A stretch of DNA of 64,000 nucleotides from Eledone cirrhosa (taxonomy: Eukaryota), in NCBI GenBank assembly GCA_964016885.1, contig CAXHJY010001547.1:62001-126000 (forward strand), read 5' to 3'. Positions 15,828 to 60,698 of this stretch are shown here, piece after piece. A program made the position numbers and the translations under genes. Positions within the stretch are counted from its first letter, which is position 1; each line of letters starts with the position of its first letter. The notes below the pieces were generated by a model. The model saw nothing but the letters and a program-made list of their open reading frames with translations, made no database searches and was not told the DNA's origin.

Positions 15828-15880
<53 letters not shown>

Positions 15881-15882
<2 letters not shown>

Positions 15883-16334
15883 CGTTTCTGAATTTGTTTA
15901 GCAAGATTCTTTATCTGAAAACGTGTGTTGAAACCGATATTGTTATACTTTGGGAGGGTCATGTTGCCAATAAGAAACACACGCACCAGTTGCTTTCACT
16001 TCAATTTATTATAAATTAAATTTATAAATTTCCGGTTGGTTGGTTGGTTCCACAACCAGACGATTGTTCATATATTGTCAAAGTGTCCTACGCCATCTTG
16101 TTTTTCACAAGATGGCGTAGGACAGAACAAAGGAGAGACACAAAAACAAAGAAAAGAATCCCCAGTCACTGAAGAGGTCACAGAATGTGTGACGAAAGAA
16201 CTTTGACAATATATGAACAATCGTCTGGTTGTGGAACCAACCAACCGGAAATTTATAAATTTAATTTATAATAAATTGAAGTGAAACAACTGGTGCGTGT
16301 GTTTCTTATTGGCAACATGACCCTCCCAAAGTAT

Positions 16335-16340
<6 letters not shown>
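15881..16340 (+). mobile_element. PLE pLTR fold-back insertion (family A) in (TA)n
   Basis: Long inverted arms; matches the 3' end of the PLE at 59254-60700. Confidence 0.85.
16165..16207 (+). ncRNA. Type I minimal hammerhead (family A)
   Basis: gtca-CTGAAGA-g-gtcac/agaatgt/gtgac-GAAA-gaac-TT-tgac. Confidence 0.75.
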
Positions 16341-16377
<37 letters not shown>

Positions 16378-17518: not shown

Positions 17519-17766
17519 TTGAGGTCATTTAATTGCAGGATTATACAGAGTCCTTTGCTCCGTTATTTTAATATATATATATATATATATATAAATAACT
17601 GATGAAGGTTGATACCCAGGAATATTAGTGTCTGCAGTTCTGTTTACATGCCAACACAAGAGCAAGAATGAAGGGTTCATTCTACTGACATGGCATTAAA
17701 AATGAGGCTTGTTTGCATAATTGCAAACGAACCGAATGCTACTATTAATATTCGAAAAACTCAGAT

Positions 17767-17799
<33 letters not shown>

Positions 17800-17804
<5 letters not shown>

Positions 17805-18548
17805 TCTGAATTTGTTTAGCAAGATTCTTTATCTGAAATCGTGTGTAAAACCGATATTGGGAGGGTCATGTTGCCAATAAGAAACACACGCACCAGTTAC
17901 TTTCACTTCAATTTATTATATATTTATAAATTTATAAATTTACAAATCTACAAACTTATAAATTTCTGGTTGGTTGGTTGGTTCCACAACCAGACAGCTG
18001 TCTATATATAGTCACAGTTCCTTCGTCACACACTCCGTGACCCCTTCAGTGACCGGGGACTCCCCTCCCCACTTCTGTGCCTCTCCCTTGTTCTGTCAGA
18101 AACAAAATGGCGTAGGACAGAACAAAGGAGAGGCACAGAAACAAAGAAAGGAATCCCCAGCCACCGAAGAGGTCACAGAGTGTGTGACGAAAGAACCATG
18201 ACAATATACAAACAACCATCTGGTTGTGGAACCAACCAACCAACCAGAAATTTATAAATTTATTATAAATTTATTATAACAAATTGAAGTGAAAGCAACT
18301 GGTGCGCGTGCTTCCCATTGGCAACATGACCCTCCCCAAGTACAACAATATCGGTTTCAACACGAAAGAACCATGACAATATACAAACAACCATCTGGTT
18401 GTGGAACCAACCAACCAACCAACCAGAAATTTATAAGTTTGTAGATTTGTAAATTTATAAATTTATAAATATATAATAAATTGAAGTGAAACAACTGGTG
18501 CGTGTGTTTCTTATTGGTAACATGACCCTCCCAAAGTATAACAATATA
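17800..18548 (+). mobile_element. Family A pLTR inverted plus tandem insertion, hypermutated
   Basis: Inverted arm ~17800-18097, sense arm ~18100-18364, partial tandem copy 18365-18548; hammerhead cores mutated. Confidence 0.85.
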
Positions 18549-19229
18549 CGTTGAAAGTGATATGTATACAGCAGATTCTAAGGATAGTGATATGTATACA
18601 TATATAATATACGTTGAAAGTGATATGTATACAGCAGATTCTAAGGATAGTGTATGAAGTGGAGGAGGGAGGTTATAGAATAGGTAAATCGAATGAGAGT
18701 AGGAGACAATACAAGATAATAGAAAGAAATAAAAAAATATATAAAATTAGATAGTGAGAAATGAAAAAAAAAATCGCAATGCTATCTTACAAATACATGT
18801 TAATAAGTTGAGAATAGAAAAAAATTATAGAAATTGAGTAGTACAAAACTGATACAAAAATAAAAGGGGTTTAACACGTCTGCTATAAGTAGTTAGTAAA
18901 ACGTATTCGGCCAATTCTATCTTAAAATTACAGGGGTGGGGGAACTGATGCTACAGAGGCCCGATGAGCTGCATCGGGGTAGGCGAAAGGGGAAAAGCAG
19001 ACGAGGAAGAAAATAGGGGGTGGAAGGAAGTGATAGGATGAGACAGGGGGAAGAAGAAGACAATGAGGAAAAGAAAAGAAAAGAGATATGTCTACCTATG
19101 TAAGCTGGGGTTTCCCCTAACTTATTCGGCAAGTGTGTGTGTGTGTGTGGGGGGGGGGGTATCAGCTCTTGTCTACCCACCCGGGTCGTTATGGGTTTGA
19201 GGGCGAGGTAAGTCCTATGCAATCTGTGT

Positions 19230-55639: not shown

Positions 55640-57372
55640 TCTCTCTCTCTCTCCTCCTCGTCCACAGCTCCTCTACCCCCGGTTCACTTCCCTGCTCCAG
55701 GCCCCGTTGCCACACCTGCCCCCACATCACCAACACCACCACCTTTCATGGTCCCAACGGCCACTCTCTCTCTGTCCGGCACGTCTTCCGCTGCACCTCC
55801 TCCAATCTAGTCTATGGACTTCGCTGCACGGAGTGTAGCGCAACCTACGTCGGACAGACTGGACGTCGCCTGGCGGACCGTCTCACGGAACACCTCCGGG
55901 ATATTCGCCTCGGCGGGAGTTCCCCCATCGCCCGCCACTTTCGCTCCCCTGGACATTCCGCCCTCCACCTCACAGTCTGTGGCCTTCTCCAATTCCATGG
56001 AACACCCGCCACCCACCTCACGGTCGAACAACACACCATCTTCACCCCCCCCCCCCCCCGACCTGAACATTCCCACCCCTATTCCTTTAGCCTTCGACCG
56101 GCCACCCGACCGCCCACCCTTTCCCCACTAACACCTCTAACGCCCCCCCCCCGGCCCATCCCACAACTAACATACTAACACCCCTACCCCACCCCTACCC
56201 CACCCCTCGACCCTCTCCCAACTAACTATACTAACAACCCCACCTCTCCCCCTAACACGCACACACCCACCTGAACATATATACACGCACTCACACATAT
56301 ACACGCACTCACACTATCCACACACCCTACTACCACCACTAACCCTCACCCACACATCCACTCCGACCACCCCACAACTAACATCACTAACCTCCCCCCG
56401 ACCTCACGCACACGAACACAGACCATCACACACACACCCACACCTATGTACACCTCCAACTCCACACACCCAACCACCACTAACCCCCACTTACACACCC
56501 GCTTTCCACCCTTTCCCCATCACATGTAATACTAACACCCCCTTTACCACACACACACTCATCCAAACACGCACGCACACACCAGTACACTACACTCCCT
56601 CCTCCGTCCCAACACCTCTTCTCTCCCTCTCTCTCTCTCTCTCCCCCCTCTCTCTCCCCGCTCCACCCACACCCCTTTACGCACACACATCCCACTAACA
56701 CCTCTACTAATATACACCTCATCGCCCCACTTCACCATCTTCCCGCTCCACCCTTCCCACCTACCCATCCTCTCCCCTGTCCACCACACCTTCGCACACA
56801 CAGTCCTCACCTTACTCCACCTGTCATCCCACTCTACTGCTATCTCTTCACCCCGCTCTACTGCTATCTCTACACCCTGTCTTGACCCTCTGACCACTTC
56901 CTGTTGCGCGCGCACCCCACTTCCCTCCACTTCCTACCACCACCAACATTGGATTCTACACCTTCGGTCATCTCTCCAACCATCCACTCCATACCTTGAA
57001 AAATATCCAGCACCTCTCCACACATCTGACGGAACTACCTCAGGACCTTACCCACGAACATACACTCACACATTATTTTCGCACCACGCCACCCACATCC
57101 ACACCACATATAAACACAAACACACACGTGCGTACCCCCCACATATACACAACCTCCGGAATCCACACGCCACCTTCCCCACCCCTGACCTCTCTCCTTC
57201 CACACGCACGCACACATCGACTCACACCCCACCTCACGCACACACCTTTACCTGAACATAGAACCTCGTTCTTCCTCAAACTCTCACATACACACGCACA
57301 CACACTCACGTACACCTACACACATACACACACACATACACAAACACCACCTTCAGCCTTCCTCGCTGAAGA
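55640..57372 (+). mobile_element. C-rich PLE 3' fragment: GIY-YIG endonuclease plus low-complexity tail
   Basis: ORF 55597-56178: CHTC...CTSSNLVYGLRCTECSATYVGQTGRRLADRLTEH...PIARHF. Confidence 0.85.
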
Positions 57373-57618
57373 ACAAAAACAAGATGGCGTAGGACAGAAC
57401 AAAGGAGAGGCACAAAACCAAAGAAAAGAATCCCCAGTCACTGAAGAGGTCACAGAATGTGTGACGAAAGAACTTTGACAATATATGAACAACCGTCCGG
57501 TTGTGGAACCAACCAACCAACCGGAAATTTATAAATTTAATTTATAATAAATTGGAGTGAAAGCAGCTAGTGCGTGTGTTTCTTATTGGCAACATGACCC
57601 TCCCAAAGCATAACAATA
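57373..57618 (+). mobile_element. Family A pLTR with intact hammerhead (57437-57479)
   Basis: gtca-CTGAAGA-ggtcacagaatgtgtgac-GAAA-gaac-TT-tgac; ends in (TA)n. Confidence 0.82.
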
Positions 57619-57645
57619 TATATATATATATATATATAATATTCA

Positions 57646-59181: not shown

Positions 59182-59253
<72 letters not shown>

Positions 59254-59258
<5 letters not shown>

Positions 59259-60698
59259 ATATTTTGGGAGGGTCATGTTGCCAATAAGAAACACACGCAC
59301 CAGTTGCTTTCACTTCAATTTATTATAATAAATTTATAAATTTAGGAATTTATAAATTTCCGGTTGGTTTGTTGGTTCCATAACCAGATGATTGTTTATA
59401 TATTGTCAAAGTTCTTTCGTCACACATTCTGTGACCTCTTCAGTGACTGGGGATTATTTTCTTTGTTTTTGTGCCTCTCCTTTGTTCTGTCCTACGCCAT
59501 CTTGTTTTTGTGTGTGTTGTGTGCTTAGTTTGCTCATGTGTTACATCCGGGAGTCTGTGTGTGTTTCATTCGTTTATTTATCTGTTTATTTACATGTTAC
59601 TGGTTGGTTGTTTGTTATATGTGCGTGTGTGTTTTCATTTTGTCCTTAATTGTAAGTTGTGATGTTGCTGTTCCACTCATGTTTTCTATTTCATTTTGGT
59701 TGGAGTTCATTTATGTTTATTGCCTCTGTGATTTGTCTAAACATTGCGTCTTTTCTGTGTGTAGATTCTATTTTTATTTCTATGTTCTCTAATTTACCCT
59801 TATGTTCTATTTTAGCATGTTGGTAGAGTACAGATGATTCTTTACTATCTTGAAGGTCTCGCCAGTGTTCATTTATCCGTTCCCCTATACTACGAGCTGT
59901 CTCACCTATGTACACTATATTTTTATCTCTACATTGTCCTTCAGTACATCTTATGCTATATACTACATTTCTAGTTTTACAGTTAATATGGGGGCTTAAT
60001 TTACAGATTATACATTTTTTATCTATACAGGGAGGTCTTTGAAAAGGGTATGTATTGCTAATAAGTGTTTTTATGGAGGTACCTGGTCTTTCTACTATCT
60101 TAATATTGAGTTTATGTTTATCTAGGGCCCTTCTAAATTTGTAAGCTAATTCACCTCTAGGGGTTGTATCGATGAACATTACACTCTGGTATTTATTGCT
60201 ATCATACCATGAGTTTATTCTATTAGCCTTATTCCTAGTTCTTTCTATTCTATTCCAAAATTTGCTCCTATACAAGGGGTAGGTCTCATTTGTGTCATTA
60301 TTTACCATTTTTTCCCATTTGGTTCTGGCTCCTCTATATACTCTGATTTTATCTCTCTGATTGTAACCAGAGAACTGCATACGGTGGATGAAGTGTTGTA
60401 TGTGTCTCTCTAGTTCTTCGGGGTTGCACATGCGGGACACATTTCTCATCACCCGTACCAAATCCGCAATCAGTATGTTGATTTTGGTATGGTCCGAAAC
60501 AGCTGAGTTTCGGTGGATCAGATATTTGGAAGTCATGGGTTTGGCATAATGGGAATGGAGGATTTGTTTTTTGTTATTAATGGTATCTAACCAGAGCTCT
60601 GTGTCTAGTACAGGTAATCGATGGTTGGAGTGTTTGCTTGGGTAGTCTATAGTAACTCTAATACTCTGGTGGATGGAGTTAGCTATTTGCTGGATGCT

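Follow-up and report, generated by a model that had tools for sequence, protein, structure and literature searches.

A fold-back pair of Penelope-like pLTRs in the genome assembly of Eledone cirrhosa carries dense A>G changes on one and the same DNA strand in both of its arms, and we read it, at a rough probability of 0.68, as an ADAR-hyper-edited hairpin RNA that was written into DNA by reverse transcription. The locus lies at positions 17802-18547 of the stretch analysed here (the window: 64,000 nucleotides of contig CAXHJY010001547.1, assembly GCA_964016885.1, positions 62,001 to 126,000 of the forward strand), and all changes are read from the assembly letters. Sequencing or assembly artefacts of either kind are unlikely when taken together, and other mutators or a subfamily, again taken together, are less likely still.

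The insertion consists of three parts that all belong to a single repeat family, namely an inverted pLTR pair and a partial tandem copy. Its left junction is a (TA)n microsatellite (17761-17801), which from its sequence is the presumed insertion target. The left arm (17802-18097, minus orientation) starts with an extension of the pLTR tail (17802-17856) that has no A>G change, followed by an outer portion (17857-17989) with the 3' part of the pLTR, an AT array and an (AACC)n tract, also free of private A>G. Over 17802-17921 this sequence differs from the copy at 15882-16012 by 3 substitutions, none being A>G in element sense. The inner left arm (17990-18097, minus) harbours a hammerhead-like motif and 16 private minus-strand A>G sites, that at 17995 being ambiguous, together with 2 C>T in CpGs beside A>G sites (17996 and 18071). 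An 18-nt spacer (18098-18115), the loop of the hairpin, lies between this arm and the right arm (18116-18361, plus orientation), which comprises pLTR sequence, a hammerhead-like motif and a partial tail, and in which 10 plus-strand T>C and 1 A>C are found. The inverted arms pair as 17952-18097 with 18116-18261. The third part, the tandem copy (18362-18547, plus), is a 5'-truncated mosaic: its segment 18409-18491 mirrors the left arm, being the exact reverse complement of 17901-17983 (83 nt, 100%), and its 3' end is without T>C. At the right end of this copy, 18543-18652 contains a 47-nt exact direct duplication with 63-nt spacing, which is not a target-site duplication because both copies lie on one side.

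Six other copies of the family occur in the window (15937-16084, 16102-16342, 36306-36464, 52108-52321, 57374-57619 and 59251-59510), and the polarity of every change was set by the majority of these copies, all within the same 64 kb. We used as reference the copy on the minus strand at 59251-60698, a Penelope-like ORF remnant (59691-60698) with an unedited pLTR (59251-59510) downstream. The remnant has look-alikes in the Atlas that score 0.95-0.97 and carry HTH_animal in 24-94% of their members, and one look-alike cluster carries GIY-YIG (48%); a Pfam search of the remnant found no GIY-YIG at E up to 0.1, and no RT core was found in the window copy of the element. Further Penelope-like ORF remnants lie at 34491-35162 (minus) and 55597-56178 (plus), the latter with a weak Pfam match to GIY-YIG (E 0.002, below cut-off). 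The left-arm tail joins (TA)n, and the same tail-to-(TA)n junction recurs at two other copies, one near 15880 and one near 36260. For Penelope-like elements (PLEs), pLTRs in inverted and tandem order have been described along with tails and (TA)n targets (PMC8557442), and the tandem and inverted arrangement, the tail extension and the (TA)n target are all present at our locus. Among the six copies, variable columns in element sense are A/G in 15 cases and C/T in 3 (majority bases A 82, G 42, T 43, C 38), and singletons comprise 6 G>A, 6 A>G and 1 C>T, a strand skew in the family as seen in a small sample. A 22-base family motif gave 0 matches in metagenome contigs. In general appearance, the interspersed repeats of the window resemble octopus repeats.

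The first-pass annotation had counted, by eye, about 15 T>C among about 18 differences in the left arm and had noted T>C in the opposite arm also, so that both arms would show A>G on the minus strand. Alignment of 18007-18097 with 59401-59491 bears out the first count: its 91 columns are free of gaps and contain 19 substitutions, 15 of them T>C. The right-arm changes are likewise present, at 18161, 18165, 18307, 18311, 18315 and 18316 and additionally at 18197, 18209, 18280 and 18343; being T>C on plus, they are A>G on minus. Against the six other copies, the shared strand holds for 16 private sites in the left arm and 10 in the right. Overall 26 of the 89 minus-strand adenines in the interior are changed, and these 26 private T>C compare with only 4 other private substitutions (17996, 18010, 18071 and 18337).

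The same asymmetry emerges when the arms are compared directly with each other. They differ in 32 mismatched columns (18 G/A, 12 T/C and 2 T/A in element sense), of which 30 are A-C on the plus strand and hence G-U in a minus-strand hairpin, with none of the reverse type (30:0, binomial p=1.9e-9); two of the 30 fall within the AT array, which is rich in indels and uncertainly aligned. This result speaks strongly against an ordinary, diverged subfamily of normal substitution spectrum, since the arms have changed in opposite directions in element sense (A>G in the left arm, T>C in the right) and a single subfamily cannot yield 30:0. We regard a subfamily as the least probable of the alternatives, even though the three parts of the locus share three sense A>G, one T>A and one G>A, and the family has many A/G columns (15 versus 3 C/T) in a comparison with six other copies. 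Beyond its private sites, the inner left arm has three A>G in common with the right arm: three of the 15 T>C counted above (18033, 18063 and 18075) are mirrored as right-arm A>G (18180, 18150 and 18138), so that they are older than the fold-back or were passed from one arm to the other. Mirroring between copies is also seen for four G by which the AT array departs from its pure repeat. These mirrored A>G and AT-array G, whether older than the event or copied between arms, may reflect an earlier round of editing.

The minus strand is predicted to fold as one long hairpin, at -384.8 kcal/mol compared with -289.8 kcal/mol for plus, and the changed sites fall on both sides of its stem, with the exception of the outer left arm (0/19). 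A sliding screen of 510 repeat pairs in the window (30,203 bases) found clusters of one-type transitions only in pairs involving this locus. In the inverted pair 31534-32021/32560-33026, 12 G-T and 3 A-C columns on plus and 9 others were counted (p=0.035, uncorrected and unpolarised), a skew that is possibly due to chance among the many pairs examined. ADAR is able to act on DNA within RNA:DNA hybrids, and deamination of a DNA strand in this or a similar manner, without reverse transcription, would also be expected to give one-strand A>G over a continuous stretch with unedited outer arms. Such deamination is nonetheless very unlikely here, given that the changes are confined to the inverted repeat with no cluster in 30,203 comparable bases (the unique flanks having no partner), and that their density of about 30% fits hyper-editing of dsRNA, which reaches up to 50% (PMC2790459).

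The sequence context of the changes lends further weight to an ADAR origin. The strict test covered 83 minus-strand adenines in the edited segments, 25 of them changed; 17995 was left out because it is ambiguous. The segments were chosen post hoc, and the p values are modest and uncorrected. The depletion of 5' G that the first-pass annotation had proposed as a check is present, with 2/20 changed after G and 23/63 otherwise (p=0.027). By 5' neighbour, the changed fractions are A 12/24, U 6/16, C 5/23 and G 2/20, and by 3' neighbour G 10/18 (p=0.018), A 5/23, C 5/22 and U 5/20. Reversed CpG polarity was considered and rejected as an explanation because only 5/25 sites follow C. Another candidate source is error-prone copying of a plus-strand RNA, with G placed opposite U, or an A:T mutator; copying from skewed dNTP pools and mutators of the polymerase-eta kind are mechanisms of this sort. 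The minus-strand excess of 3' G is equally a plus-strand excess of 5' C, which could result from slippage, and W-A contexts are changed more often (18/40 versus 7/43). Neither process, however, predicts the tie to a hairpin or the avoidance of 5' G, and the interior spectrum is nearly purely one transition (26 T>C versus 4 others), which together leave this source highly improbable. For ADAR itself, the 5' pattern matches that of all metazoans in PMC9989829, and the 3' G fits most species there. In invertebrate hyper-edited sites, on the other hand, it is 3' A that is enriched, and octopus has 3' G at only 20-25% (PMC5625713), a level exceeded by the 10/25 sites (40%) at our locus.

Each of the two C>T substitutions of the interior affects a CpG that has an A>G site for its G, a placement open to 6 of the 137 original G/C bases (p=0.0016 if mutation is uniform, 0.35 if only CpGs mutate). 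The CpGs were apparently made by A>G, and their loss suggests later CpG decay in real, aged DNA, as far as sequence can tell. At 17995-17996, G is present in 3/6 other copies; this CpG may therefore be old, and one clean case of decay is left.

These observations bear on the two ways in which the letters could mislead. In the first, a sequencing or consensus error in the palindrome would have placed C where the true DNA has T. The changed letters are known from the assembly only, and complex tandem and inverted PLE insertions do trouble assemblies (PMC8557442). Several features speak against this reading, and we consider it improbable. First, an error that depends on read direction would, we infer, be mirrored, with T>C in one arm and A>G in the other, and not confined to one strand; a literature search on nanopore errors in inverted repeats returned nothing describing a one-strand T>C error. 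Second, the densest 91 nt contain no indel. Third, other palindromic sequence is clean: the same-family fold-back 15941-16084/16200-16338 has 0 substitutions in 144 columns, the inversion 47887-49008/49296-50427 has 0 in 1132 columns, and 83 nt of this very locus are perfectly inverted. Lastly, the changes have an ADAR-like 5' context and have acquired C>T in new CpGs. In the second way, edited RNA would have leaked into the assembly through RNA-seq polishing or gap filling, so that the editing is real and the DNA unedited. The same strand and context signature would be expected, but this route stands only a slim chance: it leaves unexplained the C>T at CpGs beside A>G sites and the exact duplicate at 18362-18408, and hyper-edited reads usually do not align (PMC4365171).

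A run search with 38 sampled words from 17985-18375 returned 13 sequencing runs, none containing half the words and none of RNA. The best four, from one study, held 0.21-0.24 of the words, where 0.23 is expected from unedited family sequence alone (84 of the 361 31-mers in this interval are free of private T>C sites). These shares equal the unedited-family expectation and so count neither for nor against the C alleles.

Among the other palindromic features of the window, the same-family fold-back at 15880-16345, whose left arm is tailed and set in (TA)n and whose right end is short, serves as an unedited control. A tandem array of ~466-bp units with an internal inversion occupies 45147-50427, its units being 97.6-99.4% identical across the inversion. 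A long inverted repeat at 38078-38624 includes a tRNA-like match (38245-38315; Rfam tRNA, 31.3 bits) and is probably a pair of tRNA-derived SINEs. Matches of our locus to miRNA families were discarded, since all score far below gathering thresholds and reflect the hairpin only.

The edited interior is bounded on either side by an (AACC)n tract. None of 19 adenines in the outer left arm and none of 22 in the outer tandem copy are changed, in comparison with 26/89 in the interior (p=2.4e-5; outer arms pooled, 0/41). The outer right arm has 6/25 edited, while its pairing partner, the outer left arm, has 0/19 (p=0.029). The first-pass annotation had described the tandem copy as unmutated, which holds near 18500 (0/22 minus-strand A) and fails for 18362-18408: these first 47 nt match the right arm exactly (18187-18233), including T>C at 18372 and 18384. 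From the unedited outer arms and from the right-arm changes shared by the tandem copy, it follows that the locus is a mosaic. The two shared T>C could themselves be older variants.

Unedited copies of the family contain a CUGAAGA box and a GAAA box, and their predicted fold has stems I and II; we read these features as a candidate minimal hammerhead in the pLTR. An Rfam search detected no hammerhead family, either at the gathering threshold or at E up to 10. The left core is changed at 18043, 18021 and 18015, positions that on our reading of the hammerhead consensus presumably correspond to A9, A15.1 and the cleavage position. Changes in the right core are at 18165, 18197 and 18161, presumably U4, U16.1 and stem I. 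Both hammerhead-like cores are probably dead because both carry changes at conserved hammerhead positions. The annotation's statement that both had been destroyed is therefore upheld as regards the altered positions, with loss of function being the likely consequence. The tandem copy (18362) and the copy 36306-36475 (at 36464-36475) both have their start close to the 3' foot of hammerhead stem II, where reverse transcription may stall recurrently.

What strand the template came from can be deduced from the right arm. Normal copying of PLE sense RNA would place A>G on the sense strand of each copy, whereas the right arm has T>C in sense; it was therefore copied from antisense, for example from one minus-strand transcript through the fold-back. 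A Penelope-like RT has been shown to initiate at the tail, to nick AT-rich DNA, its own pLTR included, and to be independent of hammerhead cleavage (PMC11167929). An antisense right arm, a tailed sense left pLTR on the edited strand and an RT start at the tail together make the edited hairpin RNA the best reading. Penelope RNA is massively hyper-edited in a lizard, and Octopus bimaculoides is one of a pair of species whose hyper-editing rate is exceptionally high (both PMC5625713). The earlier proposal of an edited hairpin RNA that was reverse transcribed and integrated is thus sustained in its core, by one-strand A>G in both arms, by the depletion of 5' G, by the lack of a similar cluster in the window and by an edited strand that has the left pLTR in sense with its tail at (TA)n, the expected start for Penelope RT. 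In its simplest form, as a single integration, it accounts neither for the outer left arm (0/19, where the partner has 6/25) nor for the two right-arm changes of the tandem copy. Weighing against the best reading are that it concerns one locus, with no second among 510 repeat pairs, and that the unedited outer left arm requires an extra step.

We postulate the following sequence of events, in which transcription, ADAR action, reverse transcription and template switches are inferred steps and the pattern, strand, context and limits of the changes are seen directly. A fold-back Penelope-like pLTR pair would have been transcribed on the minus strand to give a hairpin of ~240 bp, in which ADAR would have deaminated ~30% of adenosines along both strands of the stem. 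Inosine would then have been read as G by a reverse transcriptase, most likely the element's own, and the changes would thereby have been fixed in germline DNA. The edited cDNA would comprise the interior only (~17990-18408), flanked by (AACC)n on either side, while the outer arms would stem from an unedited template, through either RT template switching or joining into a pre-existing pLTR copy. The (AACC)n tracts are where we would place such switching, or a joining by homology. The tandem copy probably acquired its first 47 nt by re-copying of the edited right arm, at a microhomology of 3 nt.

The closest precedents come from avian retroviruses, where ADAR-linked A-to-G hypermutation was described in a variant RAV-1 LTR (Felder et al. 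1994) and in avian leukosis virus (Hajjar and Linial 1995), as cited in PMC8586724 and PMC2790459. As is proposed for our locus, A-to-G clusters ascribed to ADAR action on RNA reached DNA by reverse transcription, although those viruses are infectious and not inherited, and the present case is a non-coding PLE pLTR fold-back in an animal genome assembly. Our locus further differs in having both arms edited together with unedited outer arms. In the avian leukosis virus case of Hajjar and Linial, the changes were reportedly confined to complementary sequences in the provirus. A second parallel is found in APOBEC-edited LTR retrotransposons of vertebrates, which share with the present case clustered, strand-biased and context-dependent fixed transitions detected by comparing copy with consensus (PMC4866542). 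There, however, cytidine deaminases act on cDNA and produce sense-strand G>A; here the change is A>G, following the hairpin strand and not the element sense. The APOBEC screen was designed to detect G>A in LTR elements, and invertebrates were at noise level (PMC4866542). ADAR-hyper-edited repeat dsRNA resembles the locus in chemistry, density, hairpin substrate and 5' G avoidance (PMC5625713 and PMC9989829), but consists of RNA-DNA differences that are not inherited, whereas our changes are in assembled DNA, and the 3' neighbour bias is to G here and to A in invertebrate hyper-edited sites (PMC5625713). As for the insertion itself, an inverted copy with a partial tandem copy, a tail, (TA)n and a hammerhead-like pLTR motif are shared with known PLE insertions (PMC8557442 and PMC11167929). 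In the literature searched, which included few subscription papers, no germline-fixed ADAR scar in a retrotransposon was reported.

The common view of A-to-I editing is that it alters RNA and is not passed on by inheritance. Scars of APOBEC fixed in retroelements (G>A, vertebrates) and ADAR scars in retroviruses are already known. A two-armed scar of A>G on one strand is unusually diagnostic because ordinary mutation and deamination of cDNA cannot alter opposite element strands alike, and it provides a simple genome-wide test, the count of G-U against A-C mismatches between fold-back arms. This test addresses ADAR action on germline retroelement RNA and how often its products reach DNA; the present case is a single locus, known from assembly letters. 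It is doubtful that Penelope-like fold-backs in this genome return ADAR-edited hairpin RNA to the germline as a matter of routine, possibly with cDNA of an edited transcript replacing the interior of an existing palindrome. If they do, editing would loosen the hairpin for copying, disrupt the ribozyme cores and result in a palindrome that is less perfect and more stable. Past A-to-I editing in the germline would then be recorded in DNA at such loci in a datable form, and RNA editing would have a route to heritable mutation in an invertebrate.
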